Origin: Leptospirales bacterium | Lineage (GTDB): Bacteria > Spirochaetota > Leptospiria > Turneriellales > JAOUFE01 | Assembly (NCBI GenBank): GCA_040326155.1 | Contig: JBEQLE010000001.1 | Coordinates: forward strand, 76,959-140,958 | DNA: 64,000 bases | Direction of reading: 5' to 3' | In this document: positions 8,571-44,799 of the stretch, piece by piece | Layout of the letters: every line of letters begins with the position of its first letter | Position numbering within the stretch: position 1 is the stretch's first letter | Notes under the pieces: generated by a model | The model's input: only the letters and a program-made list of their open reading frames with translations | The model's database searches: none | What the model was told of the DNA's origin: nothing | Program-made: the position numbers and the translations under genes

Positions 8571-8571
8571 C

Positions 8572-17532: not shown

Positions 17533-17662
17533 AATTTCAGATCTTTAAAAAAATCAGGCCGACGACGTCCCCGGTAGAATCGGGTTGTTAAGGTATTTTA
17601 TTCCACATGTTCGTACTGCGGAATTCGACCGCGCATCGAACCGTGAAAATAGTCGGGGTACA
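17533..17662. repeat. ~130-bp direct repeat, copy 1 (left border of tail locus)
   Basis: Matches 44669-44799 with 5 substitutions and 1 indel (aligned by eye). Confidence 0.95.
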
Positions 17663-17697
17663 TTTCGAAACTAACTTATATAATTTTTATAAATAAC

Positions 17698-17725
17698 TTG
17701 ACACACTTCATGAGTGTGGTATATT
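17698..17725 (+). promoter_or_regulatory. Sigma-70 promoter of the tail operon with embedded palindromic operator
   Basis: TTGACA (17698-17703), N16, TGn-TATATT (17717-17725); CACACT-N5-AGTGTG at 17702-17718. Confidence 0.65.
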
Positions 17726-17791
17726 CGTTTTAGAAAATATTTACTTATCATATTCTCCCACCTATAAAATTCGCTTTTAAGGAAGGGTTAT

Positions 17792-18823
17792 ATGCCAGAG
17801 ATTATATTACCGGGAACATATGTTTCCGTTCGCGATGAGGGTTTGATAAGCGCCGGTGGTGTGATATCAGGGAATATCGGGGTGGTCGGGACAGCTGCTT
17901 CAGGTACTGTTAACAAAGTAGAAATACTGGGTTCTCTTACGGAAGCCGGAGAAGTTTTTGGGGCCAAAAAAAGTGGTCTCAATTTACTTGATACATTAGA
18001 ATTGATTTATGGAAACGGCGGCCGCACGGTTTATGCGATACGCGCCAACAGTGATACTCCGGAAGATTACAAGGCGGCACTTGCGCCGCTCGAAAAAGAG
18101 ATCGTTAACATCGTTCTTTTGGCGGGTCAAGATTCCTCCCAGGTTGAGATGGTCGCCGCGCTACAGGGGCACATTGCCTCTACTTCACAGATTAAAAGAG
18201 AACGCATTGGTTTGATCGGATGCGCTACCGCAGACGATGTCGAAACTATAGCGGCTCACCCGCTCAACAGTGAACGCGTGATTTTTGCCGGCCCCGGCAT
18301 CAAGATCGGGGGAGTTGATTATTCCGGCGCATATACGGCGGCGGCCCTGGCCGGTCTGCTTTCTTCTTTACCCGTACAGGCAAGCCCGACCAACAAAACG
18401 TTAAACGTACAAGGACTGACTGAAGAATTTACTTCATCAGAATTAGAGAAGCTCGTTATGAGCCGGGTTCTAGCCGTAGAAAAACGTAAGGGCTATCGTG
18501 TAGTCAAAGGGATTACCACTGCAACCAATAGCGCATGGCATCAGATCACAACTCGGCGTATTATCGACTATGCAACTTACGGAGTACGCTCTTGTTGCGA
18601 CCCTTATATTGGAAAACTGAATAACGACCGCGTGCGTAGCGCAATGAAAGCGACCATTGATTCCTTCTTAACGGGGATGGCAGCTGACGAAGCTTTAGTC
18701 AGCTATGAATTGGAAGTTGGCGCCACCAGAGCGCAGGAAATTGCCGGTGAGTGTATCGTCACTATGACACTACGTCCGACATTCAGTATTGATTTCATCA
18801 AAGTAACCATGTACCTCGGGTGA
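17792..18823 (+). CDS. Contractile tail sheath protein (short form)
   Basis: LPGTY.., G.A..G, SPTNK, ITT, I.TRRI.D, YIGK.N, C-terminal L.P.FSIDFI.V; typical of phage sheath domains. Confidence 0.9.
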   Translation: MPEIILPGTYVSVRDEGLISAGGVISGNIGVVGTAASGTVNKVEILGSLTEAGEVFGAKKSGLNLLDTLELIYGNGGRTVYAIRANSDTPEDYKAALAPLEKEIVNIVLLAGQDSSQVEMVAALQGHIASTSQIKRERIGLIGCATADDVETIAAHPLNSERVIFAGPGIKIGGVDYSGAYTAAALAGLLSSLPVQASPTNKTLNVQGLTEEFTSSELEKLVMSRVLAVEKRKGYRVVKGITTATNSAWHQITTRRIIDYATYGVRSCCDPYIGKLNNDRVRSAMKATIDSFLTGMAADEALVSYELEVGATRAQEIAGECIVTMTLRPTFSIDFIKVTMYLG

Positions 18824-18847
18824 TGGAAAAGGGATAAGGAGTAACAT

Positions 18848-19357
18848 ATGCCAAACAATAATGTTTTTCGAGGGTCGGACGCAACACTTGTGCTGGCCGT
18901 GGATGACAGCGCAACGGTAGAGGGAGGCCTTGCCGATGGCTTAATAAGCGAATATGATTTTTCCAATATCGTCGGGCGCTTGCAAGATGTAAGAGTGAAA
19001 GTACTCAATGAGGTGCGTCCTTACCATGAGATTGGAAAAAGATACCCGACTGAATTGAGACCGGGTAATATTGACGTTACGGGTTCGGCTCGCCGCGCTC
19101 ATATTAACGGAGCGATGTTAAAACTGCTTTTAGGGGATGGCGCAAAAAGTCCTCCTCCGGGGGGAGTGATGGCACAACCGGCTTTCAGTATGGTTTTAAA
19201 TTTACAAAACCCCGCGTTACCGGACAACACCAGTAAACTGGTCCTTTTTGGAGTGAAGTTTGAAAGTTGGAACTTTGAACTACCAGAAGATGATTTTGTA
19301 ATGGAGTCGGTTACGTTTCGGGCTATTCGTATTGCAGGTGAAGAAGCCAGCGCATGA
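18848..19357 (+). CDS. Tail tube protein
   Basis: Directly after sheath; 169 aa; VGRLQ.V, YHEIG, ESVTFRA pattern of tube proteins. Confidence 0.8.
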   Translation: MPNNNVFRGSDATLVLAVDDSATVEGGLADGLISEYDFSNIVGRLQDVRVKVLNEVRPYHEIGKRYPTELRPGNIDVTGSARRAHINGAMLKLLLGDGAKSPPPGGVMAQPAFSMVLNLQNPALPDNTSKLVLFGVKFESWNFELPEDDFVMESVTFRAIRIAGEEASA

Positions 19358-19728
19358 GTCAGGTCGATTTAAAATTAACTCCGGAGGAGATGTTGGCCGG
19401 ATCACAATTTAACTATGATCTGACAATTCCTGAGGAGATTTTAAAACCGGCAATGAATTCTGAATCGTCTGCTGACATTTCATCGGGCAAAGACAGTAAA
19501 TTGCACAATACGGTTACGATTGTTCCGCTATCGATTTCCCGATTTCAGTTGATTATGAAGGCGGCAAAAAATGACCCGGCAATGATACCTTTATTAATGA
19601 TTAAAGAATCATTGCGTGAACCATCTCTGAGTCTCAAACAAATAGAACAATTGCATATGGGGCTGGTTCGCTTTTTAATACAAAATATTCGTGAAATCAG
19701 CGGTTTGTTAGAAAAAAAAAATATATAA
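19354..19728 (+). CDS. Tail assembly chaperone (gpG/gpE-like)
   Basis: Lies after tube; ends on an A10 slippery run (19712-19721). Confidence 0.7.
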   Translation: MSQVDLKLTPEEMLAGSQFNYDLTIPEEILKPAMNSESSADISSGKDSKLHNTVTIVPLSISRFQLIMKAAKNDPAMIPLLMIKESLREPSLSLKQIEQLHMGLVRFLIQNIREISGLLEKKNI

Positions 19729-19874
19729 CAGAACTAGACCGCTCGTTCCTTGCGCAATCTTCGTATCGGTTAGCCAAAGAGTTTGGCTGGACCCCCTCTC
19801 AGGTAAGGAAAATGACTTTTTTACAGGTTAAATTATTCTTGCAGATGTTGGATAAAGACAAAGGAGTGGAGTAA
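19713..19874 (+). CDS. -1 frame extension of the tail chaperone (gpT/gpE'-like); not in ORF track
   Basis: KKKYITELDRSFLAQSSYRLAKEFGWTPSQVRKMTFLQVKLFLQMLDKDKGVE*; no own start near 5' end; stops just before next ATG (19876). Confidence 0.75.
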   Translation, partial: KKKYITELDRSFLAQSSYRLAKEFGWTPSQVRKMTFLQVKLFLQMLDKDKGVE

Positions 19875-19875
19875 C

Positions 19876-21060
19876 ATGACTTCTTACGGTAAAACTCTTT
19901 TCCTCGAATTTACCAGATTACAACGCGAGTTAGAAATCCAAAGTGAAGCACCCGAATTTCTAAATATTGGTAGGGAATTTCTTGACCCTTTTCATGACCT
20001 GTCCAACACCGAAACTGTTGTGCGAGAGGCGATTGATCTTTCACATTTTTTAACCTCCGGTTTTTTTCCTCATTCATCCGCTGATTTTCCTTTTATCGAT
20101 ACAGACCTCCGGCATCCTGATGATTTTCACGAAGATTTTGAATATTCGGAAAATTTACCACACCAAGAATCAGAAGCGCAAAAAGGATATGATACAAACC
20201 AAACTCTTAATGAGCAAAACACCAAACAATCGCCTTCACCCGAACAAAATTCAAAAAAGCCGAATACGGAACAAAAAACTGAAAGCGAAATAAATTTTTT
20301 ATCAAATCAAAACCCCGATAGGGAAACCATCGAACCAAATCGGGAACCGCAAACTTCCCAAGAGCCGAATGAGCAAAACACCAAACAACGGTCTTCACAA
20401 GATACAGCTTCAAGCGAGCGCACTTCACCGACAAAATCTACGCAGGTCTATCGATCAAAAAAAACGGCCACAGGAACATTACAAAATGGAAATGTCGATT
20501 CGTTGCGACAGCTCGGTATTGAAATTTCTCAAGATGTCCGCAATGATATAAAAGGAATACAACCAATTAATGACAGTGGAAATTTTACTAACCAAATCCA
20601 GATTTTGGAAAATCAAAATGCCTCCGCTGAAAGATCACCATCCGGAAATAACGTCGGGGAAACGTTGGGCCAACACTCTCAACAACCAACGTCTCAGGAA
20701 AGTTCTCCGCTAAGCAATTATATATCAGAGAAAAACGATTTTCCTGCGCCGCTGGGTTCTTTGCGGGAATTGGCAAAGAATATATCAGAAGGAGCTATCG
20801 TTTCTTCCGATGGAATTCTTTTTGCACAAGAAGAACTCACCAAGCCAAAACCGGAGACAAGTCAAAACGAAAACGAACACTCTATCTCCGGGACCGGGCA
20901 AGTTTCTACGGGAACACCGGAGCAGTTAAAGCATTTCGATTTGGAAAACAGCCGAGAATTTGACGTTAAGGATGGCCAGGGAATCGACAAGGAAGAGATG
21001 CTCGATTTAATTAAAAACGAGTTAGAATTACAATATTTGAGGTTATACGGCGAGGATTGA
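19876..21060 (+). CDS. Low-complexity protein in tape-measure position
   Basis: Follows chaperone; S/Q/N/E-rich disordered core with a 21-nt duplication (20209-20229/20368-20388); helical C-terminus L..EL..QY.RLYG. Confidence 0.5.
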   Translation: MTSYGKTLFLEFTRLQRELEIQSEAPEFLNIGREFLDPFHDLSNTETVVREAIDLSHFLTSGFFPHSSADFPFIDTDLRHPDDFHEDFEYSENLPHQESEAQKGYDTNQTLNEQNTKQSPSPEQNSKKPNTEQKTESEINFLSNQNPDRETIEPNREPQTSQEPNEQNTKQRSSQDTASSERTSPTKSTQVYRSKKTATGTLQNGNVDSLRQLGIEISQDVRNDIKGIQPINDSGNFTNQIQILENQNASAERSPSGNNVGETLGQHSQQPTSQESSPLSNYISEKNDFPAPLGSLRELAKNISEGAIVSSDGILFAQEELTKPKPETSQNENEHSISGTGQVSTGTPEQLKHFDLENSREFDVKDGQGIDKEEMLDLIKNELELQYLRLYGED

Positions 21061-21100
21061 TTTAGGTCCTCTATGTTTAAAAAGGTAAAACAGGTAAGAT

Positions 21101-21853
21101 ATGGCTATAGAGTTGGCAGAAATTGAGTTAAAGCGGGTTCACCGAATCGTAACGCAAGAACCCACTGCCTTTGTGCGCCATGCCATTCCGGGCATGGATG
21201 GCGACATGGTCCAGAACCTGGGGCGCGGAAGCGTTCGCCTTTTAATCGAAGGGATTTTTTATGGGCCGGAAGCTGCCAACGATCTGGAAAAACTACGCGG
21301 CCTTTATCGCAAAGCGCAACCCGTTGAGTTTCTAGCTGAGATCACAGGGCAATCCTATTTTGGCGAGGTCACACTGGAGGATTACCGGGTTTGGCAGTTG
21401 GCTTCGGAGCCCGACCAGTACAGTTACACTCTTACGATTGCCGAATACTTAAAACCGCCCGAACCGGAGACGGTCGAAGTTCCCGTAGCAACCGAAGTCG
21501 AAAGTCAAATCAAAGATCTGGCGTCGAAGGCGATGGATCTGGTGAGTTTACCGAAATTGGAAAACCCTTTGCCCGCCCTGGAAAAAGCGTTGGCCGATAT
21601 ACAAAAAGGGATCGAACTACTTGCGCTTTCTCCGAACTCGATTATCGAAAGCCTGCGTCCTGTTTTTGGTTTGGTCGAACCCAAAGCTGTCGAGATGAGC
21701 GCAGTTGATGAGGCTGGGAATCCGGTTCCCGACATGCCTTTATATTTTATCGACGAGGCAGGCGAAAAACACAAAGCGCAACTCGAAAACGGCAAGCTTG
21801 AAATGAAAGAGCTACCTCCGGGAAGTTATCGCGTCGTGGTGGGTAAGGAATAA
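21101..21853 (+). CDS. Tube-initiator/baseplate protein (Mu gp43 N-terminus-like) with C-terminal transthyretin/carboxypeptidase-regulatory-like domain
   Basis: H.IPG.DG..VQNLGR...L...G.F.G; C-terminal D..G.P......G......LPPG.Y.V. Confidence 0.6.
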   Translation: MAIELAEIELKRVHRIVTQEPTAFVRHAIPGMDGDMVQNLGRGSVRLLIEGIFYGPEAANDLEKLRGLYRKAQPVEFLAEITGQSYFGEVTLEDYRVWQLASEPDQYSYTLTIAEYLKPPEPETVEVPVATEVESQIKDLASKAMDLVSLPKLENPLPALEKALADIQKGIELLALSPNSIIESLRPVFGLVEPKAVEMSAVDEAGNPVPDMPLYFIDEAGEKHKAQLENGKLEMKELPPGSYRVVVGKE

Positions 21854-21855
21854 CG

Positions 21856-22545
21856 ATGGCTGTCGCACAAAATTTCGCGGTCATGGATATGATTGTTCCC
21901 GGCGGTGTATATAAAACCTTTCACGAATTCACCGCTTATGCAGATTTTACCAACTGGGTTGCCGAAGCAGATAAACAAAATATTTCTGAAGGCTACCCCT
22001 ACGGTAAAATTGACGATCCGGATAAGCCGCACAATCTGTATGTTTACTCCAAGAACTTTGCCGGCACAATTAGTGTTGGTTCAACTTTTACGGTAAAGCA
22101 GGTTGTCTATCACGCCAAAGCCGCTTTAAAGCGCGGCACAACTCTCCATGGCCCCTACCAGTGTATTTTGGTAGAGTTTGATTACGGCGGCGCCAAAACC
22201 CAGGGCTATATCTGGCCGGTCTACAACGGTTGGGTAGCCGAAATTGTCCCGGAAGGTTTATCTTTAATTATCGAAGAGGGGCAACTTGCAAATTTCCAGG
22301 CTATTTTTAAACAAAATTCCGACGGTAGCTATTCGCTCATAGACTTTGCGTTTTTCATAGAGATTGAAGACGACACTTTAGAAATCCATGTGATCGACCC
22401 CGGCGGAACACCGCTTTCATCGGCCACCATGATCTTAACCGGAGTCGACATTGCGCTTGAAAAAACGATTACAATTACGGATGGAACCGGTACACAAAGC
22501 GGATTAACACCGGGGACGTATCTGATTAAGAAGGGGGGTGTGTAA
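21856..22545 (+). CDS. Hypothetical protein: N-terminal domain shared with the 34075 protein plus C-terminal TTR-like domain
   Basis: QVVYHA..YQCILV..QGYIWPVYNG; C-terminal D..G.PL..A.......G....GL.PG.Y. Confidence 0.6.
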   Translation: MAVAQNFAVMDMIVPGGVYKTFHEFTAYADFTNWVAEADKQNISEGYPYGKIDDPDKPHNLYVYSKNFAGTISVGSTFTVKQVVYHAKAALKRGTTLHGPYQCILVEFDYGGAKTQGYIWPVYNGWVAEIVPEGLSLIIEEGQLANFQAIFKQNSDGSYSLIDFAFFIEIEDDTLEIHVIDPGGTPLSSATMILTGVDIALEKTITITDGTGTQSGLTPGTYLIKKGGV

Positions 22546-22548
22546 CCC

Positions 22549-25500
22549 ATGATTCCCATACTTGAACAAATTCCCGACCCCGAAGAGGTACAGTTTCAGC
22601 TTTCGGAGATGGCGCGTACGGTCGATGAGATTGTCGCCCGGGCGGAAGAAATTGCCTCGGGTGATTTTTCTTTACTTTTTGAAGGGGCGTCTTCTTTGCC
22701 TTTTCCGAAACCGGAAAATTTGACTGGGCCGATGCTCGAAAGTCTGAATGCCATAGTAAAAAATATTCCCGATAAAAAGACTCTGCTGGTGGAGCAATAT
22801 AAATACCGGGAACAAATTCGTTCGCAAGTAGAAACATTACTCGCTTTTGACCCTGCCGAGGCCCAGAGTTTATTTGAGTTGATTACCCCAAAGTTTGCTT
22901 CGCTTGACAAGTGGATTGAAAAAGCTGATTTTTTTAAAAGTTCGTATGACCCGAATGGATCGCCCGATTTTTTGAAAAACCATATCCGAAATCTTCATGT
23001 AATTTCGTCGGACTCCGGTTTGCATAATAAGTTTAAGGCGGCCAATGCCATAGCCCCTGATCTTATGGCGAATGTTCGGGAACCAGTCTCTTTTTTACGA
23101 CGCTCTGTCTGGTTCGACCCGTTGCGACTGTCTCTGGAAACAATGCGTGACGCTGATTTTAACGACGCGGCTCTTTTGCCCAGCCACCGGCAGAAACTGG
23201 AGCAGATAAAAACCCTTCTTTCGGAAACCGCTCTCGGCCTGGAAACTCGCTTTAATGAAATAAAAAGCGCGGTGTCCGCACTACCCGCTTTGAATGAACT
23301 CGAAGCGTTGGACGATGCAACTCCCGAAAACGATCTCGATTCTTTTCTTGAAGTCCTTCCCGAACTGCATGAACTACGCGACGGTCTATTTTGTTTGTGC
23401 CTTGGCGCAAATTTAAAAAGCGCCCCTGTAAATTTCTATTTATTATATGAAAACTTTATTTTCAAAAACCAGGAGCTCCCAAAGGAGATATCAAGGGCCG
23501 GTACGGAAACCCTCAAGTTTTTAAAAAAGGTCCCGATCGCGAAGTCGGCTGCGCTCGCAGATTCGGCCATTTCTACCTGGAAAGAAGCAGCTGCGATATT
23601 GACCGACGAAACAAACGATCTTAAAAAAGATATTCTCGGGGCAACTACACAACTTACGTCACTGGCTTCCGAGTTTTCTTTGTCTGAGATCGGCTCTGCA
23701 ATGGACGAAGCCGTTAAAGCATTGCGCCAGTCCGTCTCAGAAATTGAACCGCGAGTAGACGAGGTTGCGAAGCAAATCGAAAACATGATCGAAGAGATAT
23801 CGCCTGAAATTTCGGCGCTGGATCTTTCGAATATACAGTCGTTAATTCGTGAACTGCTGGAAACTTGCGAGGGCATATTTTCCGACCCGGAACTTGGAAA
23901 GGTGATCGACGTTGCCGGTGAGGCCAATAAACAAGTAGAAAAGGTTTTGAACCAGGTTCCGCTTGCCGCCCTTTTTGAACAACTCCATACGGCGCTCGAC
24001 GATGTTGGAAAAAAACTCAACGGGGTCGATACGAAATCGCTAAGCGCTTCGGTCCGATTGCTGGTCGATGTGGCGCTTACAAGTATACACTCGGTCGACC
24101 TTCCCAAGCAACTTGGCAAAGTGATCAAAGAACAGTTCTCGGCGATCTTTATGGAAGCCGCCAAAGCTCTGTACCCCTTTCGTGAAATGTACAAACTGAT
24201 TTCCGATACCGTGGACAATTGCGGGCCGGAGCGTTTACTCGAAGGCGACCTTCTTTCCTCATTTCAGAGTCTACAAAAAATTATCGAAAGTATTGATCCG
24301 CAAAATGCATTGGCGCCTTTAAAGAAGGTTCAAGTCAAGTTAAACAAAGAGCTGGAGCTTTTGGACCCCGCAAAACTTCTCGTTAACATTAAAGAACAGT
24401 TGAGTAAAATCACAACCCGACTTTCGGAACTTTCACCGGATCTGATCTCGGAAGAGCTGCAAAAGATCACCTTCGGAGATTCTTTAGAAGATGAACCCAA
24501 CGTAATTTTTTCAGAACGCGTCGGTTCATTTGATGATTTAATTGCGACACTCGAGAGCGCCCTCGCCGGATTTCCCGAAGAGTCTTTGTTTGATGATGCG
24601 ATTTCGAATCTCGAAAATATACCCGAAACTTTAGAAGATCTTAAAAACAGGATGCTCAATTTTCTTTCGGGTGAGCAGGTAACCACCTCCGATTTTAAAT
24701 TTTTAAAAGATCAAGCGTTAGAGCTCGGGGCCGCAACGATTACTCCTGAGATCTCTTTTTGCAACGAGACAACCGCTCTTTTAAATGAATGTGATCTCCC
24801 GGCGGCGAGCGCGGCGCTCGGCGATCTATTGGCCGAGATATTAACAAAAATTGAATCGGCTACATTGCCAGCGCTTGACACCGGAGAAGTCGACACGTCC
24901 GGGGCTGCAGAGCTTGCCGCCCTCGGCCAGGATGTCGCGGCGATTGACCCGACGCAAATATTTCAAAAAGCAAACGCAGCTTCCATCGATAATCCGGAAT
25001 GGGAACAACGCCGAAAAAGATATAAACAAAGGTATGATACCTGTGTTAAAATATGGGAGGCGACGCGCGCAAAAATCGCAAATTTATCGACCGATACTCT
25101 CGGTGGTTCTCTTGATAATCTTACCGGGCAAATGCAAATGCTGTGGCCGCCATTTTCCTCCAAAGAAAATGTAGCGTATAAGGCTTACTTAAAATCTACG
25201 CGGGAAATTTGCAAAACTTTTCAACACACGCATCAGGAATTACAAAGCTATCTTTTCGGGTTAAAAGAGTTTCGCCGTTTGAGCCAAGACGCGCTAACTT
25301 TGTATAACCCGACCGAGTTTGACTTTACTCAAGAGGCCGAAGCCTGGAACGCACTTTTAGAGCAGGTTCAATCTAACGTAAACAGTAAAGAGGTCGAAAA
25401 ACGGATTCTCAATTTACGAAAAGAGATCGATAAAGAGATACTGAAAATCTATCCAGCCGAGAAACTCGAAAATCTCGACACAATCTTTGATTTGAAAATC

Positions 25501-26681: not shown

Positions 26682-26682
26682 A

Positions 26683-27453: not shown

Positions 27454-27471
27454 AAAATTGAAGGATTATAA

Positions 27472-27894
27472 ATGAGCGATACCTATTTTACGGATTTTAA
27501 AATGAACAACCGCGACTTTGGCGATGTCGTTTCGAGCAGAGATCAAGCGGACATTGCCATCTCGAAAGGGGATCTACTTGCCGTATCGGGTAGAGAAAAT
27601 TTGACGCAGGCCTTAATCCACCGGTTGATGACTCGCAAAGGAGATTTGAAAGAGTTGGGGCATCCCGAATACGGTTCCCGTTTGCATGAACTACAGGGGC
27701 AGCCAAATAATGAACGCACCCAGTCTTTGGCGCGACTCTACATACATGAGGCTCTTGGTCGAGAAAAAAGAGTCGAAGAAATTGAGAGGGTGGAAGTTAC
27801 CGCCTCGACCGCCAATACAATGACAATCCGGATCCGAATTATGCCGAAAGGAGGAGAGAGTTTGACTTTGAATATGTCGCAGACTCTGGCTTAA
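27472..27894 (+). CDS. GPW/gp25 baseplate wedge protein
   Basis: G.ENL.QAL..RL.T.KG.L..LGHPEYGSRL..L.G; E.RV. Confidence 0.9.
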   Translation: MSDTYFTDFKMNNRDFGDVVSSRDQADIAISKGDLLAVSGRENLTQALIHRLMTRKGDLKELGHPEYGSRLHELQGQPNNERTQSLARLYIHEALGREKRVEEIERVEVTASTANTMTIRIRIMPKGGESLTLNMSQTLA

Positions 27895-27895
27895 T

Positions 27896-29062: not shown

Positions 29063-29070
29063 AAGGCTGC
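29049..29070. other. Intra-operon hairpin overlapping the baseplate J stop codon
   Basis: GCAGCCTT-N6-AAGGCTGC, perfect 8-bp stem. Confidence 0.4.
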
Positions 29071-30976: not shown

Positions 30977-31008
30977 AAGAGTAATTGAAAGGAACAAGGA
31001 GCAAACAA

Positions 31009-34000
31009 ATGGCATTAAACGATAAAACCAAAAACCCGGGCGACTTAATTAAGTCGCAGGACTGGAACGACACCGTAGACGAGGTCAACCGCCTGGGCAC
31101 CGATAAACTCAACCGAAGCGGTGACATTATTCGCGGCGACCTGCGCGTTGACGGAGAACTCACCGTCACAAGACAATTGCAGATCGGAGACGCAAGCCAT
31201 GTGAAAGCATTCAGTGAAACAGGCCTGGGCGAATTAAAAATCGCACTTGGTAGATTTGGCATCGGTACTATGATTCAACTCGAAGTTAAAATTGCCGGAA
31301 GTCATGCGGATACAGCGGGGATGTACCATGTCGTTTGCAACTGGAACGAGCGTCCTTCTATATTGTATCAGAGCGCCGGAAACAAAATGTGGAGATTTAC
31401 TTTATTTGGGTATCGCCAAAACGAAGAGGTCAAAGACGCCTCGGGTGCAACGCCTACCAGCGGGGCAGCCTATCTTTGGGCTCGCTGGCTACCAGCAGAT
31501 GGCAAACCTGCTAATGCGAATAATACGCTCCATATCAAAGTTGTCTCTGTCACTGAATTTGACGAAACCGATACCGGCGTCTGGGCGACAGCGGTAAAGT
31601 ATCCGGTCTCAAAAGTTTTGAGCGTTCATGTACGAAGTAGTAATGTGGGTATCGGAACCGACGCTCCGAAATCTAAACTTGAAGTAGCGGGAGACATTCG
31701 GGGCAATAACCTGTTAGTGGGCAATAGTATTTATCGCGATGGCTCTATTGAGCTGAGCGGTGCGACTCCTTACATCGATTTTCATCACGCCGAGGGCGTT
31801 ACCGATTATAACATGCGGATCATCAATAATGCGCCGGGAGAATTGACTGTTGCAGGCGGTATGTTACGAGTGACTCAGGGAAAAGAACTTACTCCTATCG
31901 TTGGAACAGGCTCTTTGGTTATTGGATCGGATACATCACTCAATATGGGCTTTGATAATAACGAGATCATGGCTCGTAAAAATGGTCTTCCCTCGCCGCT
32001 TAACCTGAATATCAACGAAGCCGCCAATTCGCCGGTCATCATCGGTACATTGTCAGTACTTAAAAATGGCACCATAGCCGGGGCAGCAAAAGTTGGCAGC
32101 CTAAGTGTGACGGGTAACGTTGGAATTGGGGTGGATGTGCCTACATCAAAACTGGAAGTAGCGGGAGATATTGAATTAAGTGGTAAGATTAAATCAGGAG
32201 CCAATACTATTCGCGATGCTGGTGGAGGTTGGCTTCGTACATACAACAAAACCGGTTGGGTTAGCCAGACATACGGTGGCGGTTGGTATATGGCAGACTC
32301 TTCATGGATTAGAAGTTATGGCAATAAAAATATATTTCATAATAAGGGGGTAATGCGTACCGATGGAACTTTACAAATTGGCCCTTCGGGAGGAACTCTC
32401 AGTATTGCAAATGGAGGGGATTTCGCTTACCGAAGCAATGTTCTTTTTGCAAATACATCAGGCGATGTGGGAATAGGGACGACTGGCCCCAAAGGTAAAC
32501 TTCATATCAGAAACGCTGATGGAGCCGATGTGTATTCAGGTTTACGGTTTTATCCGGCTGATGCATCATCGGCGGGGAGAAATAGTTATCATCGCATTAC
32601 TGGTTTTCGTAAAAGCGGATTGTGGATTTCGGGTAGCGCGAATGGTACTGCACATACCAAATCTAATATATTGTTAAAAGATGAGGGTATCTTTTTTGGT
32701 ACAAGTGATGGTACAACCGACCCCGAAGCAAACTTGAAGTTGTCCATTTTAAACAATGGTAATGTGGGGATTGGGACGGAGGCATTGGAGGGCAAACTTA
32801 CGATAAATAGCGGTAACGGTAGTTGGATATTCTTAAAACAAAACAGGGCAACTTCCGGGGGCGGCGGCTTTTCTATACATAACCCTTGGCGTAATAATGA
32901 CCCAGTCGACAGAAACAGATTTGAAATTGCATATAAGTCTAATACAGGGGTTTGGAAGTGGTCACTACTTCAAGTTCGTGCCGATGGATCTGTTTATGCC
33001 GGGTCTACTCATGTTACTTCGGATAGATCAAAAAAGAAAGATATTCTACCGATAAAAAAGGCTTTGGATGATTTGATAAAATTAAAACCGGTTAGCTTTT
33101 CCTGGAAAAACTCAGGTCTGGCTAAAAAAGAAGAACTTGGATTTATAGCTCAGGATGTTGAACAAATCTATCCTGAATTGATTGGCGACAATGGTTACGG
33201 GGTAAAGCATCTAAATTATAATGGTTTAATGGCGCCAGTTGTACAGTCCATAAAAGAACAGCAAACACAAATTGAATTGTTGACAACTCAAAATTACGAA
33301 CAACAAAAATTAATAGATAGTAATAAACCAACATTACAGGGCGCTGATTTCGCAGAGTATTTTAAATCAACAGACGGAAGCTCCATTGATGTTGGTCTAT
33401 CAGTAGTTTTAGAGAAAGACAAAATCAGGAAAGCGAAAAAAGAAGAAGTGCCGGTTGGTATCATTTCGAATAAGCCTGTAGTCCTTGGCGGTTCACATAT
33501 GGAGTGGCCGGGTAAGATCCTTCAGGATCCCTTCGGCAACGAAATTCTCGAAGAATACAAAGAAGAGATCATGGCGCAAAAAACAGAAAAAGTCAAGCGC
33601 GAGCGACAAAAAGTAAAAACCAAGACTATCGAAGAAGATGTGATCGAAACGGTTGAGAAAACCATCAAAGGCAAAAAGGTTATGGTTGAAGTGACCAAAA
33701 AAGAGAAGCGCGAGATCGATGAGCCGCAATTCAAAGAGGTCGAAATCTACGACGAAAAAACAAAAGAGATCATTCGCACCGAGCAGGTTCCGATCATGGA
33801 AACCTTTGAGGTCGAAGAGTTGGTCTACGATGAAAATGGCGGACCGGTCATGGTGGGCACGGGTAAATTTGAGAAGAAGACTCGGCCGAAACTGAACCCT
33901 AAGTATGATCCAAAGCGTGAGTATGTTCCGCGTGACCAGCGACCTGAGTGGAATGTTGTTGGGCTGGTTGGGCAGATACCGCTTCGTAAGGGGCAGCCGA

Positions 34001-34065: not shown

Positions 34066-34074
34066 GGGGGTTAT

Positions 34075-37716: not shown

Positions 37717-37920
37717 CCCACAAGGGGATAATCGATATTATTGAATCTATTGAGAACTTGTTGTAAACCTACTTAGCTCAGATTGATCCGGGAGGATACT
37801 TGACCTTAGCAAAAAATATGGAAGCTCTATGCGAGCAAAGCGTATAACTCGTCAAGAACCGCTTGTTTTTCTTCAACTATTCCTCCCTGTACATTAACTC
37901 GAGAATAAAACACCCACTAA

Positions 37921-37992
37921 TTATCCCCAAAATTATATAAAAATACTTTACGCTTCCCAGAAACACTATACATATGGATATATATAAAGAGC
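37921..37992 (+). promoter_or_regulatory. Duplicated upstream element, copy 1 (before fibre 2)
   Basis: TTATCCCC.AAATTATATAAAA(A)TACTTTAC...CACTATACATATGGATATATATAAA also at 42234-42303. Confidence 0.7.
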
Positions 37993-38111
37993 GTTAAAGC
38001 TACGACATTTGATTTCCCGCCTGCCGACATAGAACGTAGTTAGGAAATCCCTATCTATTTTTTCCTTATCTTGCGTAGTCAGTGCCGTGCAAATGACAAA
38101 AGAGGGAACAA

Positions 38112-41075
38112 ATGGCATTAATCGATAAACAGAAAAATCCTGGCGACATGATCAAGTCGCAAGACTGGAACGACACCGTAGATGAAATCAACCGACTTGA
38201 TAAAGATAAGGTAAATAAAACGGGCGATCTGATTACGGGGGGTCTATCGGTAGGCGGTAAACTCACCGTGAAAGATCAATTTCAAATCGGCGATGCGAGT
38301 CACATAAAATCATTCACTCAAAAGGGCGCAGGCGAATTACAAATAGGGCTGGGTAAATTTCGCATCGGTACGATGATACAGATCGAAGCGAGAATCGCCG
38401 GAGCCAATGCCGAGACAGCTGGGCTCTACCATATCGTCTGCGACTGGAATGAACGGCCTTCGATTTTATACCAGAGCGTTGGTGACAAAATGGAGCGATT
38501 AGCGTTCTTTGGCTACCGCCAGAATGAAGAAACCCTGGACGCTTCGAGTCTGGCCATACCCAGCGGCGCTGTTTACCTCTGGGCAAGATGGCTACCTGAC
38601 GACGCCAAACCCGTCGATCAAAATAACACGTTGTATTTAAAAGCCGCCTCTGTTACCGAATTTGACGAGCTTGATATTGGCGTTTGGGAGACGGCAGTGA
38701 AATATCCGGTGGGGAAAGTTTTGACTGTCGATTCGCGAAGCGGAAATGTGGGGATTGGGACAGATGCTCCGGTCACGAAGCTACATGTAACCGGTGCCAC
38801 TACGCTTGAGTACCTTAGAGTATTACCATCTTCGACAAGTGAAGGCGGAGAAGTACAACTCTTGGGTGCCGGTACGAATCCACCTTGGCACCTCGACGTA
38901 TATGACAACCGATTTCGAATTCACAGTGGAGGTGAGAAACTCAATATTCTTTCGAATGGAAATGTCGGGATAGGGACGAGTTCTCCTACAAACAAATTAA
39001 TGATCACCGGAATTACACCACAGTCAAACGATGGCATCGTCGTTCAATCAACAGACAATCGCACTATTTCATTATTACCGAGTAGAGGGGCCGGAGGTCA
39101 CAACCCTTTAGTTTCTGCCGGAGATACATCGATTATATATTCAGCAGGTGCACCAAATACAGGTGCCTTCGTTATTGGACAATGGAGTTCCACAACGAAT
39201 GGTTTGAAAATTGCAGCAAATGGGAATGTTGGGATTGGGACTGGCACACCGAAAAACAAACTTCATCTATGCGGAGTTACCGATGGAGCGATCATCTCGG
39301 ATCCAAATGATCGTCCAGGTCTTGTAATTACAGGCCAATACCCTCAAATCGATTTATTCAGTGCAATGAACAATGGAGCTCATGGGCCTACGATTCGTCT
39401 GGGTGGGTATAATGACGACAGTAAAACTACGTTTAAACATTGGGTCATTGGCACGTCAGGGAGAAACTGTAGGCATCTCGATATTGGATTTTCCGCCAAT
39501 AACGACCCAAATCCACATGCGGGAATTCGCAATTACAATGGCAGTACGAAAATGACATTTCTGGAAAATGGGAATGTGGGAATTGGGACGCTGGAGCCGG
39601 GAGCGAAATTGCAAATCAAGGGGAATCAGATTATTGAACGAGAAGCTGGTCACTTGCTTTTAGATCGCCAAGCTAGTGAAACGACAGGCGGTAATAAGAT
39701 ATTTCTGGAGTTGCGACAAATGGATGCTAATCCTGCAAAAGTACCAGCTATTTTTCCGTCTATTAGGTTTCACCATGCTTACAAGTTTTGGCATAGGCTG
39801 GAGGGGCGCCCGGATGGATTACACGTAAAAGATGGTCACGAATTAAATGATGTTTATAGACCTTTCCATGCTTCTGAACTGACTATCCATGGAAATAATA
39901 TACGAACAACTGGCCGAATGCATTTAGACGGACCTGAATTATGTTATATTTTAAACAAAAGTGGTGTAATCATCGGTAAAGAGTGGGGTGGAAATGGTAA
40001 CCTTTCGGTACAAGGTGTTTTTAGTAATTCCGATCGGCGTTTGAAAAAAAACATTAAAAAAATAAATTCATCATTAGAGAAACTAACGAAATTACAGGGT
40101 GTTTCCTATTACTGGAAAAACCCGGAACGTTTGCCCACTCTTCAAATCGGACTAATTTCTCAGGAAGTTGAAGAATACTTTCCAGAATTGATCAGCCTGG
40201 GTAGAGAAGGAGTAAAGTATATAAACTATTCAGGCTTAATCGCGCCCTTAATTGAGTCTACGAAAGAACAGCAAAAACAAATTGAAACGTTATCGGCACA
40301 AAACGAAAACCAGCAAAAAACTATCGACCACTATCACAAATCATTAAAAGGCGCAGATTTTGCTGAGTACTTTAAATCGTTAGACGGAAAAAGTATGGCT
40401 CCGGGTGTTTCTGTTGTCATGGATAATGGGAAGATCCGCGTAGCGAAGAAAGGGGAAGTACCATTTGGCGTTACTTCGGAGAATCCACGAATGTTGGGCG
40501 GTCTCCATTCTGAGTGGCCTGGCAAAATTTTACAAGATACTTTCGGCAACGACATCCTCGAAGAATACAAAGAAGAGATCATGGCGCAAAAAACCGAAAA
40601 GGTAAAACGCCAACGCCAAAAAGTAAAAACTAAAACCATCGAAAAAGATGTGATTGAAACGGTCGAGAAAACCGTCAAAGGCAAGAAGGTCATGGTTGAG
40701 GTGACCAAAAAAGAGACGCGCGAGATTGACGAACCACAGTTCAAAGAAGTTGAAATCTACGACGAAAAAACCAAAGAGGTCATTCGCACTGAGCAGGTTC
40801 CGGTTATGGAAACCTACGAGGTCGAGGAACTTGTCTACAATGAAAACGGTGAGTCGGTCATGGTCGGCACAGGTAAATTTGAGAAGAAGACACGTCCGAA
40901 ACTGAACCCCAAATATGATCCAAAGCGTGAGTATGTTCCGCGTGATCAACGTCCTGAGTGGAATGTTGTTGGGCTGGTTGGGCAGATTCCGCTTCGTAAG
41001 GGGCAGCCGACTGCGCCGGGCTGGGTGAAGATGAAGGATCTTGATGAGGATGTTGAGTTGTGGTTGGTGAAGTGA
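38112..41075 (+). CDS. Tail fibre/adhesin 2 with S74 and peptidase G2 chaperone domains
   Basis: N- and C-termini paralogous to fibre 1, different middle; four GNVGIGT repeats; SDRRLKKNI; ADFAEYF. Confidence 0.85.
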   Translation: MALIDKQKNPGDMIKSQDWNDTVDEINRLDKDKVNKTGDLITGGLSVGGKLTVKDQFQIGDASHIKSFTQKGAGELQIGLGKFRIGTMIQIEARIAGANAETAGLYHIVCDWNERPSILYQSVGDKMERLAFFGYRQNEETLDASSLAIPSGAVYLWARWLPDDAKPVDQNNTLYLKAASVTEFDELDIGVWETAVKYPVGKVLTVDSRSGNVGIGTDAPVTKLHVTGATTLEYLRVLPSSTSEGGEVQLLGAGTNPPWHLDVYDNRFRIHSGGEKLNILSNGNVGIGTSSPTNKLMITGITPQSNDGIVVQSTDNRTISLLPSRGAGGHNPLVSAGDTSIIYSAGAPNTGAFVIGQWSSTTNGLKIAANGNVGIGTGTPKNKLHLCGVTDGAIISDPNDRPGLVITGQYPQIDLFSAMNNGAHGPTIRLGGYNDDSKTTFKHWVIGTSGRNCRHLDIGFSANNDPNPHAGIRNYNGSTKMTFLENGNVGIGTLEPGAKLQIKGNQIIEREAGHLLLDRQASETTGGNKIFLELRQMDANPAKVPAIFPSIRFHHAYKFWHRLEGRPDGLHVKDGHELNDVYRPFHASELTIHGNNIRTTGRMHLDGPELCYILNKSGVIIGKEWGGNGNLSVQGVFSNSDRRLKKNIKKINSSLEKLTKLQGVSYYWKNPERLPTLQIGLISQEVEEYFPELISLGREGVKYINYSGLIAPLIESTKEQQKQIETLSAQNENQQKTIDHYHKSLKGADFAEYFKSLDGKSMAPGVSVVMDNGKIRVAKKGEVPFGVTSENPRMLGGLHSEWPGKILQDTFGNDILEEYKEEIMAQKTEKVKRQRQKVKTKTIEKDVIETVEKTVKGKKVMVEVTKKETREIDEPQFKEVEIYDEKTKEVIRTEQVPVMETYEVEELVYNENGESVMVGTGKFEKKTRPKLNPKYDPKREYVPRDQRPEWNVVGLVGQIPLRKGQPTAPGWVKMKDLDEDVELWLVK

Positions 41076-41116
41076 TTTTATTTCACAATTATCCCCTTAC
41101 GGACATAAGGTGGGTG

Positions 41117-41656
41117 TTAAACAAGAGAACCATATATCGGTGTTACATCAATAGCATTTAACATAAGTTCAAGCATTTGAGAATTTAAATGTCGATATGT
41201 AAAATAATATCGCAGATTTTTTTCAAATTTATTAAATTTGCCCCAATCAACTCCAACAATTGGACTGTTCGTATCATAGGACATTGTAATCATTAAGCTG
41301 ATAGCAAAGTTTTCATTAACCCATTTAATTTGAGGATATTTGATTAAAGTGTCTTTATCGATATCCTTTATTAATTGAATCGGCTTTCTTCTCGATACCC
41401 AATATGCTGTATAAGCGGCAACTTTTTTTGGATTTGCTCTTTCAATGCCGTGAAAATCTTTTAGTCGAGTAATATCAGAAAAGTAATCTAATAAAATTTC
41501 ATCTATTAAATATTCATTAACTACTGCAAAATTATCAATATTTGCAGATTTAATGTAATGCCTTGCTTTTCCATAAATAAAAAGAAATCTATTTTTCAGG
41601 CATTCTTCGCCAAAGTCTTTTATTAGATTCTCATAAGAACGATCACTGTTTTCCAT
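41117..41656 (-). CDS. Hypothetical protein (DI.R.K.FH...N..K.AAY.AYW..RRKPIQ motif)
   Basis: 179-aa AT-rich ORF overlapping a small upstream gene. Confidence 0.65.
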   Translation of the reverse strand: MENSDRSYENLIKDFGEECLKNRFLFIYGKARHYIKSANIDNFAVVNEYLIDEILLDYFSDITRLKDFHGIERANPKKVAAYTAYWVSRRKPIQLIKDIDKDTLIKYPQIKWVNENFAISLMITMSYDTNSPIVGVDWGKFNKFEKNLRYYFTYRHLNSQMLELMLNAIDVTPIYGSLV

Positions 41657-41849
41657 CGTCGGTAAGTAATGTTTTGAATTGGTCAGATTTTACAAAATTG
41701 TCAAAACTATTTGATGCTTTTTCAATTGGGTATTCTGGTGAGTTATTTAATTGAACTTGTTTTTTAAAGGTTTTATCTTTAATTCGATCAATAAATCTTT
41801 TACTTGCATCGATTGTTGATTTATCGAAATGTTTTTCGAAATCGCTCAC
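41643..41849 (-). CDS. Small hypothetical protein, first gene of the antisense pair
   Basis: 68 aa, GTG start with GGGGG RBS-like run; overlaps 41117-41656. Confidence 0.5.
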   Translation of the reverse strand: MSDFEKHFDKSTIDASKRFIDRIKDKTFKKQVQLNNSPEYPIEKASNSFDNFVKSDQFKTLLTDDGKQ

Positions 41850-42233
41850 GTTTTACCCCCGCAAAAAGAATAAGTAATCTTAAAATAAATTACCATTTAA
41901 TAAGCCATTATTTTTATGTAGTGTGCAGATAGTCAACAAAAAAATGGTTTATAGTATCGTTTCTGGCCAAAATGAACTTTATGAATATTTTTAAATCCAG
42001 AGTCGACATGATGCGATATGACCAATTCCGGGCACATAGTCTTTACATTGGTAGCGGCGTCATTTAGCCCCAAATAAATACGTTATCCAAAACAGACTGA
42101 AAAGATTTGGTATGAAATGCTCCATTACTAGCGCAAAAACCATCGCAAAACTTCGAACCATTTCTTATAAAACAAATGGGATTACACATGGGACGTTGAG
42201 TAACCATCAAATTTTACCCGCAACAACCAATAT

Positions 42234-42303
42234 TTATCCCCTAAATTATATAAAATACTTTACACTTGTTAAAAGCACTATACATATGGATATATATAAA
42301 AGC
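42234..42303 (+). promoter_or_regulatory. Duplicated upstream element, copy 2 (before fibre 3)
   Basis: Matches 37921-37992. Confidence 0.7.
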
Positions 42304-42421
42304 ATCCAAGCCTGCGCTATTTAACCTAATCCGTTACCGGTATTCGCTCCGGTTGGGGAATTTCCTACCTGTTTTTTGCCGACCCCGGCAGGCCCGGATA
42401 AAACGATAACCGAGGGAACAA

Positions 42422-43177
42422 ATGGCATTAATCGATAAACAGAAAAATCCTGGCGATATGATCAAGTCGCAAGACTGGAACGACACCGTAGATGAAATCA
42501 ACCGGCTCGACAACGATAAGGTGAATAAAGCGGGCGATCTGATTACGGGGGGTCTATCGGTAGGCGGTAAACTCACCGTGAAAGATCAATTTCAAATCGG
42601 CGACGCGAGTCATATAAAAGCGTTCAGCGAAACAGGCGCAGGCGAATTAAAAATCGGGCTGGGTAAATTTCGCATCGGTACGATGATACAGATCGAAGCG
42701 CGGATCGCCGGAGCCAATGCCGAGACAGCGGGTCTCTACCACATCGTCTGCGACTGGAACGAGCGGCCTTCGATTTTATACCAGAGCGTCGGTGACAAAA
42801 TGGGGAGATTAGCGTTCTTTGGCTACCGCCAAAATGAAGAGACCCTGGACGCTTCGAATCTGGCGATACCCAGCGGCGCCGTCTACCTCTGGGCAAGATG
42901 GCTACCCGACGAGACCAAACCTGTCGATCAAAGTAACACGTTGTATTTGAAGGCCGCCTCCGTTACCGAGTTTGATGAGCTCGATACCGGCGTCTGGGAA
43001 ACCGCTTTGAAGTATCCTGTAGGGAAAGTTTTGACTATCGATTCGCGAAGCGGGAATGTCGGGATTGGGACGGATGCTCCGGGGGTAAAAGTGTACAAAG
43101 ATGTAAAATTACCCATCTACACCCACCAACAAAAACAAATCACCCTACTCCCGTTCTATCCACACGATTACTGGTAA
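42422..43177 (+). pseudogene. Truncated tail fibre 3 (anchor domain only)
   Basis: 42412-43082 is colinear with 38102-38772; homology ends right after the first GNVGIGTDAP, then ~30 unrelated codons. Confidence 0.75.
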
Positions 43178-43179
43178 GA

Positions 43180-43731
43180 TCACGTAATCCCCGAAACCAT
43201 TCCCCCCGGGCTGCCCACGAAAGGCGCATGAGCGCCCGGCACCGGCGTTGTTGGCTTTTGCAATTTTACCCAGTCAATGACACAACCCGCAAGTTGCAGC
43301 ATCGATTCCTCTCTGTCATTGGTATCATTATCCAGGTCAATTGCTATTGAGAGGTTGAGGTTTGTGATTGTGGGTGAATAGGCCATCGGCATGGGAGAAG
43401 TCGCAAAACCTACATCGGTGATGTTGTACATGGCCGCACTTAGTCCTGTGACCAACTCGCCTATCATGTGATCCATCGCCTCTTTCCGAATTTCGGCTTT
43501 TGATGCGGTTAAACTCATCGCCAGGTTTTGAATTTTTCCTTTGGCGGTGGTTATTGTGTCTGGGGTGCCTGCCGGATTTAACGCGACCCAGCTAAAACTT
43601 ACCTCCGCATTATCAGCGATATATTTAGCAATAGCCTCGCCCAGTTTTGACAGCGCACCCTCTGGAGCAACCCCATCAGTCGCCGCCAGAAGCGCTTTTT
43701 GTAAACCCTCAGCACTTAAAGCCATAACCAC
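43180..43731 (-). CDS. Hypothetical tail-associated protein (probable start 43725)
   Basis: MAL....L.......L..AI..Y....A.V pattern, recalled from small proteins next to phage baseplate spikes. Confidence 0.5.
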   Translation of the reverse strand: MVMALSAEGLQKALLAATDGVAPEGALSKLGEAIAKYIADNAEVSFSWVALNPAGTPDTITTAKGKIQNLAMSLTASKAEIRKEAMDHMIGELVTGLSAAMYNITDVGFATSPMPMAYSPTITNLNLSIAIDLDNDTNDREESMLQLAGCVIDWVKLQKPTTPVPGAHAPFVGSPGGMVSGIT

Positions 43732-43807
43732 TTCCTTAGATTTTTCATAGACATGTTACACCGTATTGTTATAAAGACAATCATAACGTTTAAGAAACAA
43801 TAGAATG

Positions 43808-43826
43808 TACAAAACATTGTTTTGTA
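43808..43826. promoter_or_regulatory. 19-bp perfect palindrome between divergent genes (operator candidate)
   Basis: TACAAAACA-T-TGTTTTGTA. Confidence 0.5.
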
Positions 43827-43916
43827 AAGGAAAAAATAAAGCATAAAGGCGCGAAAGAGATTCGCTGCTGATTATATTAATTATTTATAAAATTTAAATG
43901 TAGGTAGGTAAGAACA

Positions 43917-44111
43917 ATGAAAAAACAATTAGAACAAAGACTGGAAACACTCAAAAGTGAATTTTCTGACGGCCAAAAACAACTAATGGAACTTCAAAAT
44001 CAGGAGACATCACTAAAAGAAACTCTACTACGAATTAGCGGCGCCATACAAGTTCTTGAAGAAGAGATAAATGGACCTGAACCGGCCTCGACGAATTTAA
44101 ATGATAAATAA
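43917..44111 (+). CDS. Small coiled-coil protein
   Basis: Heptad pattern ending LLRISGAIQVLEE; overlaps next gene. Confidence 0.7.
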   Translation: MKKQLEQRLETLKSEFSDGQKQLMELQNQETSLKETLLRISGAIQVLEEEINGPEPASTNLNDK

Positions 44112-44619
44112 ACTCATTCAATCCATCATTCTTCTGCTGGAGCAAAACTTGAGCGCGATTTTGGACACTCCGGTAGATCAAACAAATCCATCACTCACGG
44201 TTTTACCGGGCAAGTTTTCTTTTGTTCCCGGGGCCAATCAAGATCGTCTGCAAGCACGCGCTCAGCAATTAGCGTCCGAGCGAGATTTCAACCAGGAATT
44301 TTTTGTAAAAATTCTGGCTCCGGACGTAGCGAAAAGTGAAGAAATAGCCGCGCTTGCCATTAACATTATTATCACAGAAAAAGAGTTCCTGCTTGGGCAG
44401 GTAAACCGCGAAAACAAAGCAACATACCAAACCGGTAAGTACGTATCAGAAATCGATATAACCGAATTTCAGTTTCTCGAAGGCGCACTAGATAACTCCG
44501 GTGCCGTAATTAATTTCGTCATGAAATTTCAAGCCGGCGGACGTTTAACTCTAGCCAAAGAAGCCGGACCGGCTGAAGTTATTGAAAAAGTAGTTCTAAA
44601 TGAGCCTAACGTACAATAA
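44101..44619 (+). CDS. Possible tail terminator/cap (Pvc16/Afp16-like) or hypothetical protein
   Basis: MI..L...I..LL...L start, alpha/beta pattern, terminal position in the locus; weak support. Confidence 0.4.
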   Translation: MINKLIQSIILLLEQNLSAILDTPVDQTNPSLTVLPGKFSFVPGANQDRLQARAQQLASERDFNQEFFVKILAPDVAKSEEIAALAINIIITEKEFLLGQVNRENKATYQTGKYVSEIDITEFQFLEGALDNSGAVINFVMKFQAGGRLTLAKEAGPAEVIEKVVLNEPNVQ

Positions 44620-44668
44620 GTCTTGACCGCACTCTACCCACCGCTTCCACGGTGTTTTGGCCCGGGTG

Positions 44669-44799
44669 AATTTCCAGATCCTTAAAAAAATCAGGCCGAC
44701 GACGTCCCAGGTAGAATCGGGTTGTTAAGGTATTTTATTCCACATGTTCGTACTGCGGAATGCGACCGCGCTTCCAACCGTGAAAATAGTCGGGGTACA
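44669..44799. repeat. ~130-bp direct repeat, copy 2 (right border of tail locus)
   Basis: Matches 17533-17662. Confidence 0.95.

Follow-up and report, generated by a model that had tools for sequence, protein, structure and literature searches.

The ERIC (or IRU), BOX, RUP, Correia (or NEMIS) and bcr1 families are structured interspersed repeats of approximately 100–170 bp that lie between genes and whose function is debated or obscure. [quoted passage not shown] The attC sites of integrons are folded single strands with conserved structure, variable sequence and terminal motifs of the R/L-box type. Repetitive extragenic palindromic (REP) elements are presented in PMC3733652 as palindromes of 20–40 bp, including GTAG-tagged ones. 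Here, a stretch of 64,000 nt from the draft genome of a Leptospirales bacterium (GCA_040326155.1, contig JBEQLE010000001.1, positions 76,959–140,958), hereafter the window, was analysed to characterise two direct repeats of about 130 bp that bracket a phage-tail-like locus. A preliminary description of the window had read these repeats as boundaries through which the tail locus was gained or can excise, or alternatively as a dispersed structured element or non-coding RNA. We found the flanking repeats to be two of about 90 copies of a small, structured intergenic repeat. The pair most probably represents the two most recently diverged members of this lineage-restricted family and not boundaries made for the tail locus. 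In the literature searched, general REP and MITE reviews and motifs of Borrelia plasmids were retrieved, and no family of this kind was described there for this lineage.

The flanking pair and its family

The left copy of the repeat (17533–17662, minus strand) and the right copy (44669–44799, minus strand) were aligned together with their flanks and differ by five substitutions and one one-base indel, with similarity breaking off abruptly at both ends. They are direct repeats, 95.4% identical over 131 bp in BLAST. A whole-genome BLAST with the left copy recovered the right copy at an E value of 5e-54, and an independent repeat finder reported the pair at 17527–17662 and 44664–44799 with 93% identity. 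The left copy is the complete member of the pair, while the 5′ end of the right copy, in the RNA sense, is cut short by an adjoining fragment of a transposase tail. The cores of the two copies, delimited with the covariance model R1 described below, are located on the minus strand at 17545–17645 (92.3 bits; contig C83, 94503–94603) and 44682–44782 (96.2 bits; contig C83, 121640–121740). The left copy ends 35 nt before a sigma-70-like promoter match that lies outside the repeat (17698–17725, plus strand; TTGACA-16-TATATT with a TG extension, 11/12) and upstream of the sheath gene start at 17792. On the other side, 49 nt separate the start of the right copy from the stop codon of the open reading frame (ORF) at 44101–44619, which is the last plus-strand ORF of the locus. 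The size, the direct orientation, the number of differences and both spacings agreed with the preliminary description.

The draft genome comprises 4.26 Mb in 171 contigs and is 94.66% complete. BLAST detected 10 further partial matches besides the flanking pair (12 in all) with 71–92% identity, a more sensitive BLAST detected dozens, and iterated nhmmer searches returned 56, 92, 96 and then 94 matches. R1 was built from 40 copies and, with a cut-off of E ≤ 0.01, gave 90 matches of 25 to 100 bits. The family is spread over at least 49 contigs in both orientations. A repeat specific to the island edges, present in two copies, is contradicted by these 90–94 scattered copies, which together with the covariation reported below bear out the alternative of a dispersed structured element or non-coding RNA.

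Copies are mostly intergenic, as 61 of 72 did not overlap crudely called ORFs, and all four classes of neighbouring-gene orientation occur around them (23/22/14/11). Pfam scanning of 37 proteins encoded beside copies showed no common theme. These included EF-P, SmpB, TatD, FliG, an aminotransferase and an enzyme of the poly(A)-polymerase family as well as Fic, HicB, SLATT, a PIF1 helicase, SNF2- and UvrD-type helicases and a nonribosomal peptide synthetase condensation domain. The 35 consecutive pairs of copies on the same contig were inverted in 22 cases and direct in 13, with a median spacing of 10.9 kb, and copy orientation was not biased with respect to local GC skew (39 versus 35), which speaks against an element tied to the replication strand. 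Among 80 copies compared, the median pairwise identity was 60%, and the flanking pair, 95.6% identical in this comparison, was the most similar of all 3160 pairs.

A cmscan of 12 copy-bearing loci against Rfam 15 at E ≤ 1 produced three unrelated weak matches, none of them at the repeat. No credible copy was detected with R1 in 40 relatives (one match of 26.5 bits), in four genomes searched with laxer filters (best match 26.5 bits, compared with 40–100 bits in the own genome; best same-family match 22.4 bits) or in 150 genomes drawn from the phylum, where one 54-nt match of 28.5 bits was obtained in genome G063. As far as the genomes searched go, the family appears to be lineage-restricted. 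The look-alike in G063 (contig C83, 5141–5194), which belongs to another family of the phylum, keeps UUCGGUAGAAUUCCG...CUGCC, that is, the helix with the U.G wobble and the bulge described below; it is without the inner domain, has no second copy in that genome and may be a chance match. A search of 596 Gb of genomes with the pattern CGGTNGCATTCCG...CCTTWAC returned at least 83 single matches in unrelated phyla, all of which scored ≤ 19.9 bits with R1 and were regarded as chance.

Conserved fold, strand and mode of copying

Across 40 aligned copies 17 columns are invariant, and the strongest signal comes from one pair of columns about 85 nt apart that stays complementary (mutual information 1.39 bit, 97% canonical in 80 copies). 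RNAalifold, applied in the sense of the window minus strand, predicted a long-range helix of five pairs, P1 (GGUNG/CNGCC), which is canonical at all five pairs in 40/40 copies with no broken pair. In order, the pairs are GC in 40 copies; GC in 40; UG in 37 and UA in 3; CG in 19, AU in 13, UA in 7 and GC in 1; and GC in 40. The third pair is thus an almost invariant U.G wobble, and the fourth covaries freely. Read on the opposite strand, 37 of 40 copies would have C.A, a mismatch, in place of the wobble, and the folded strand is therefore the window minus strand. A variable hairpin likewise shows G.U in place of A.C (AU in 22 copies, GU in 13 at one pair). In the left copy the 5′ arm of P1 lies at 17626–17630 (GGUCG on the minus strand), with the covarying base at 17627 and the U of the wobble at 17628, and the 3′ arm at 17557–17561 (CGGCC on the minus strand), where 17560 pairs with 17627. 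The corresponding arms in the right copy are at 44763–44767 and 44694–44698, also on the minus strand.

A second helix stacks directly on the 3′ side of P1 and also covaries, one of its pairs being CG in 32 copies, UG in 7 and UA in 1, and the next AU in 11, GC in 9, GU in 8, UA in 1 and something else or unpaired in 11. On the 5′ strand a conserved 11-nt bulge (CAUUCCGNANU) separates P1 from this second helix, and within the two helices lie a nearly invariant CCUUUAC junction and a hairpin that ranges in length from about 13 to about 50 nt. The covariation score of the whole structure was 0.250 compared with 0.156 in shuffles, of which 0/500 scored as high, and sliding the partner columns by 1–3 positions reduced the paired cells from 76% to 30–47%. 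P1 is followed by a U-rich tail, which in the left copy extends to about 17540. T makes up a fraction of 0.57 there, compared with 0.30 in the genome, and four or more consecutive T occur in 40 of 78 copies. Covariation supports P1 and the second helix, and the conservation is structural and strand-specific, on the window minus strand.

The nested hairpin drawn in the preliminary description was recovered in minimum-energy folds, but these were no better than shuffles. For the copies folded singly, the z scores were -1.57 (left copy, minus strand; 12/200 shuffles reached the same level), +0.14 (left copy, plus strand) and -0.71 (right copy, minus strand). Much of the drawn hairpin is covered by the local hairpin GTAGTGCGG/CCGCACTAC, which was rejected as the conserved fold. 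It is paired in 71.9% of cells versus 74.7% in shuffles, 498/500 of which reached this level, and 10–26 of 40 copies fail to form the outer pairs. The substitution reported in the terminal loop was confirmed as T/G at 17625/44762, within a 7-nt loop. A third hairpin (alignment columns 80–84/92–96) has 52% of cells paired and was left out of R1. An AUUCC/GGAAU pairing, judged by eye, was rejected as 5/5 changes in the alignment break it, and a coding reading was rejected given variable-length insertions and a TAG in one frame wherever the free P1 base is A.

The element is most likely selected as a folded single strand, probably RNA, that would be recognised by a trans-acting protein. A narrower possibility is that each copy is a gene for a trans-acting small RNA of about 100 nt, transcribed from a promoter of its own and terminated by P1 together with the U-rich tail. 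The family would then act as a multi-copy regulatory RNA or as a sponge for an RNA-binding protein. The strand-specific structure and selection in every copy, the U-rich tail directly after the closing helix and the unbiased orientation to neighbouring genes fit this possibility. Upstream of the core, at a distance of 27–31 nt, a semi-conserved AAnCTTyAAA motif occurs in 27 of 74 copies, and 28 of 74 copies have a -10-like hexamer between -24 and -18, compared with 11–22 in control windows (11–12 in four of them). These motifs weakly suggest that copies may have their own promoter. The -10 signal is nevertheless weak, as one control window reached 22, and it comes with no conserved final T and no -35 box. 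A simple terminator scan found no terminator at either window copy, and the family is missing from all relatives searched, which would be unusual for a core regulator. On balance we regard the small RNA gene as doubtful, though worth considering. A cis-acting leader, i.e. a riboswitch or attenuator for the downstream gene, was considered because in 38 of 71 cases a co-oriented gene starts 26–240 nt past the U-rich tail. In 33 of 71 cases, however, the next gene is convergent, and the neighbouring genes have no function in common. Rfam gave no match at the repeat, the other genomes searched in the phylum yielded no credible copy, and no co-oriented gene comes after either window copy. This explanation is close to refuted.

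The manner in which the copies arise was approached through the six most similar pairs, in which homology spans 131, 136, 127, 207, 125 and 118 bp; some of these pairs lie on different contigs, where the shared unit is about 118–136 bp. Since the closest pairs share only such short homology, a unit of about 115–135 bp is copied as a block and not via segmental duplication. The core measures about 100 nt and the full unit about 115–135 bp, and the flanking pair is probably the two most recently diverged members of the family. Gene conversion is an unlikely source of the 95% identity, given that invariant blocks common to typical copies do not exceed 13 bases. Of the six closest pairs, three are direct, on one contig and 3.5–27 kb apart, so that recent copies tend to be local and direct. 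Overall, the 46 same-contig pairs within 60 kb are no more alike (identity 0.61) than pairs on different contigs (0.60). New copies may mostly arise nearby, which would explain why the youngest pair lies 27 kb apart.

A remnant of a DNA transposon of MITE or REP/REPIN type, moved by an HUH/Y1 or DDE transposase acting on folded single-stranded or on double-stranded ends, would match a short, intergenic, multi-copy, lineage-specific element that is copied as a unit. In addition, about half of the copies carry GTAG beside a palindrome-like CGG...CCG, which recalls the GTAG-tagged REPs treated in PMC3733652. The flanks of 70 copies (60 nt), however, contained no inverted or direct repeats beyond shuffles. 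The mean longest inverted match was 5.96 versus 5.72 in shuffles, and the mean longest direct match, as a measure of target duplication, 5.84 versus 5.75, with a maximum of 8. In the own genome PF01797 (Y1/HUH) had 0 matches, with matches in 6 of 14 known genomes as positive control, and PF01385 (TnpB, OrfB_IS605) also had 0 matches. RVT_1 had two matches, both on contigs without copies, and Phage_integrase had four. The local GTAG hairpin lacks covariation support, 498 of 500 shuffles pairing as well, orientation is not biased to the local GC skew (as given above), and copies form no inverted doublets at their median spacing of 10.9 kb. We consider a transposon remnant very improbable. Because there are no terminal inverted repeats, target duplications or Y1, RAYT or TnpB genes, the whole unit would be multiplied by machinery other than a classical cut-and-paste transposase. 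Ideas of a dif/Xer hijack and of CsrA sites were dropped, as the alignments show only partial resemblance.

The tail locus, its junctions and the island question

The phage-tail-like locus (17792–44619, plus strand) was annotated with Pfam at E ≤ 1e-3 in a scan of 34 ORFs in window 12992–56604, 21 of them between the repeats. It encodes a sheath (PF04984, PF17482), a tube, a DNA_circ_N protein, baseplate V, gp25-like and J-like proteins and two long fibre proteins with Peptidase_S74 and G2 domains, and a 1059-aa protein is a tape-measure candidate by its size and position. No capsid, terminase, lysis, integrase, resolvase or HUH domain was detected in the 21 ORFs, in line with the earlier statement that no integrase lies inside, the full set of 34 ORFs likewise yielded no integrase or recombinase, and NCBIfam gave no matches for five unannotated locus ORFs. 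GC content changes from 36–40% in the flanks to 42–49% over most of the locus, and this change falls at the repeats. No sheath orthologue was found in 40 relatives, which showed only weak N-terminal similarity; the closest sheath relatives found are on two viral contigs (61–69% identity), where related tail loci occur without a copy of the repeat. Because the locus is GC-rich compared with its flanks and its sheath has no orthologue in the relatives searched, it looks horizontally acquired, judging by sequence composition and similarity. It may have been acquired next to or between copies of the repeat.

Several observations on the locus and its surroundings stand apart from this. A GC trough of 31% at 41000–42000, around a minus-strand ORF without family match (41117–41656), suggests a mosaic origin of the fibre end. 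Direct repeats (71–93%) at 30988–31287, 37909–38390 and 42222–42700 are the 5′ parts of three tail-fibre-type genes, two of them including also about 80 bp upstream, and the 251-aa ORF at 42422–43177 resembles a short alternative or remnant fibre cassette. Outside the locus, the flank protein at 14092–14940 was not found in three same-family genomes, and for that at 16233–16691 the relatives are only 39–40% identical and lie on metagenome contigs of 1.5–1.8 kb.

The right-hand junction differs from the left. After the right copy comes a 74-bp tail of a multi-copy insertion sequence (44792–44866, plus strand), containing the last codons of an rve/rve_2 transposase ORF and the terminal repeat, instead of the sequence that follows the left copy. 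Elsewhere in the genome this tail closes an ORF with rve_2/rve integrase-core domains and includes the terminal repeat of an insertion sequence that we take to be IS3-like. It was found at the ends of contigs C20, C135, C47, C131 and C163, where full insertion-sequence copies break the assembly at five contig ends, and at C150:6572–6645 with 97% identity. The right copy is fused to the tail at eight shared letters, GGGnTACA, just upstream of hsdR. Because the joint falls in this 8-letter microhomology, it fits a microhomology-mediated deletion in which the right copy lost its outer end and the insertion sequence lost most of its length. The left copy retains a TTTCGAAA motif that resembles the upstream motif of the family. 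The bracket was thus remodelled at its right edge. Beyond it, a type I restriction-modification system (hsdR, hsdS, hsdM) occupies 44919–53506, with a HigB-like toxin gene and a gene combining helix-turn-helix (HTH) and Peptidase_M78 domains inserted between hsdR and hsdS.

Two further direct pairs were examined. The second pair (95%, 114 bp, 3.5 kb apart; contig C81, 8168–8281 and 11654–11767) brackets a 3.5-kb islet that begins right behind the stop codon of panC and holds Fic, a HigB-like toxin, an HTH protein and small ORFs. The third (86%, 25.7 kb apart; contig C106, 12533–12627 and 38249–38334) brackets the housekeeping genes metG, yidC, mnmE, glucokinase and a MurG-like gene, and contig C106 also carries two weaker same-orientation copies at about 34.6 and 36.7 kb. 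The repeat boundaries lie at different positions of the element in the pairs around the islet and the tail locus.

These data bear on the explanation closest to the original proposal, in which circular or linear locus DNA carrying one copy recombined with a resident copy, by a Campbell-type event or through a site-specific enzyme, leaving hybrid direct repeats between which the locus is deletable. It would account for the first rank of the flanking pair among the 3160 pairs, the position of both copies at the edges of the GC-rich block, the absence of the sheath from the 40 relatives, the second direct pair around the Fic and HigB/HTH islet and the nearby, direct placement of three of the six closest pairs. 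Against it speaks that no integrase, resolvase or HUH domain was found inside the locus. The sole tyrosine recombinase of the window (7602–8570), 9 kb from the locus, matches XerC/XerD models and stands in a housekeeping row, topA-xerC-hslV-hslU (5718–10692, minus strand). Of four tyrosine recombinases in the genome it is the one that was typed, as XerC/D-like and below the cut-off of the integron-integrase models, and it is not an island integrase. Nor did we find a Y1 (HUH) transposase in the genome, which speaks against the HUH recombinase proposed in the preliminary description. The third pair encloses ordinary genes, consecutive copies are more often inverted than direct, the related tail loci on viral contigs are without a copy, and the two bracketing pairs differ in their boundaries and therefore have no common crossover point. 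Taken together, this explanation is rather unlikely. The proposal of island boundaries thus keeps the most similar pair in the genome, the enrichment of high-identity pairs for nearby direct placement and a second pair around an islet, and loses ground to the many scattered copies, their diverse flanking genes, the 13 direct versus 22 inverted neighbours and the 86% pair around housekeeping genes. Many scattered copies without a link to island edges had been named as one half of what would speak against it, the other being the lack of a single-copy empty site in relatives; the first half was observed for the family as a population.

A more far-reaching idea is that the element is an undescribed functional module of folded RNA or single-stranded DNA, in which the wobble, the bulge and CCUUUAC dock a copying or recombination machinery that captures the DNA between copies. 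We hold this to be improbable. If true, the tail locus and the Fic/HigBA islet would be cassettes between young copies, and blocks of genes could be gained and lost by an integrase-less, repeat-guided route.

Several points weigh against reading the flanking pair simply as recently diverged family members. The pair that ranks first sits exactly at the GC-defined edges of the acquired locus, the second 95% pair brackets an accessory Fic/HigBA islet, and three nearby direct pairs among the six closest exceed purely random placement. Homology ends vary between close pairs and the unit has no sharp ends. Good structural support is confined to P1 and the adjoining helix, with the third hairpin at 52% of cells, and the folded strand could be RNA or single-stranded DNA. 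Searches with Y1, OrfB_IS605, RVT_1 and Phage_integrase identified no copying machinery. Gene context was taken from crude longest-ORF predictions, and the R1 searches outside the own genome scored 26–150 candidates per genome and covered genomes other than those of the same genus.

The reading of recently diverged family members leaves room for a link with the locus. The pair may be a young local duplication beside the newly gained DNA, or copies may have produced it through homologous recombination; exchange between copies could also have brought the tail locus in or lead to its loss. As direct repeats of 131 bp with 95% identity, the copies could serve as a substrate for rare RecA-dependent deletion of the locus. 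We read the pair as not being an attachment site in the usual sense. The flanking repeats cannot count as proof of a dedicated mobile island, even though this deletion substrate remains.

Comparison with described repeats and attachment sites

The direct repeats around an acquired gene block resemble the attachment sites of genomic islands. The differences are that no integrase was found in or beside the locus, that the window contains no tRNA gene and that about 90 copies lie beside ordinary genes. Like integron attC sites, the copies keep their structure while the sequence varies, but they do not form one-directional arrays (13 direct versus 22 inverted, median 10.9 kb), and the alignments contain no conserved terminal motif of the R/L-box type as it is generally defined.

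The repeats are closer to the ERIC, BOX, RUP, Correia and bcr1 families, with which they share a size of about 100–130 bp, intergenic placement in either orientation, folding at the RNA level and restriction to one lineage. They have no sequence relation to these families, lack terminal inverted repeats and target duplications, and show an unusually high divergence (median 60%) around few invariant blocks. With REP, BIME and REPIN elements, as portrayed in PMC3733652, they share shortness, intergenic position, tens to hundreds of copies, lineage specificity and a fold conserved over sequence, and such elements are regarded there both as selfish DNA and as functioning at the RNA level. REPs, in the same account, have a local palindrome with an unpaired GTAG/CGTC tag and often form inverted doublets, whereas the element described here has a long-range helix that spans about 85 nt, a bulge and inner hairpins. 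The REP-RAYT system differs further, as no RAYT/Y1 gene was found here, the local GTAG hairpin fails covariation and the copies lie kilobases apart.

The features that generally define structured interspersed repeats were all observed, i.e. a multi-copy, intergenic, non-coding and lineage-restricted element with compensatory changes, and the family is a new one of a known kind, the small structured interspersed repeats. Within this kind it is unusual in two respects, a long-range helix in which the wobble is invariant and only one pair is free, and very high divergence around invariant blocks. About 90 copies that keep a strand-specific fold at a median identity of 60%, without the hallmarks of known transposons, make it a well-defined case in a poorly understood class. 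The invariant wobble and the single free base pair provide a testable model for finding the recognising protein in this uncultured spirochaete lineage.

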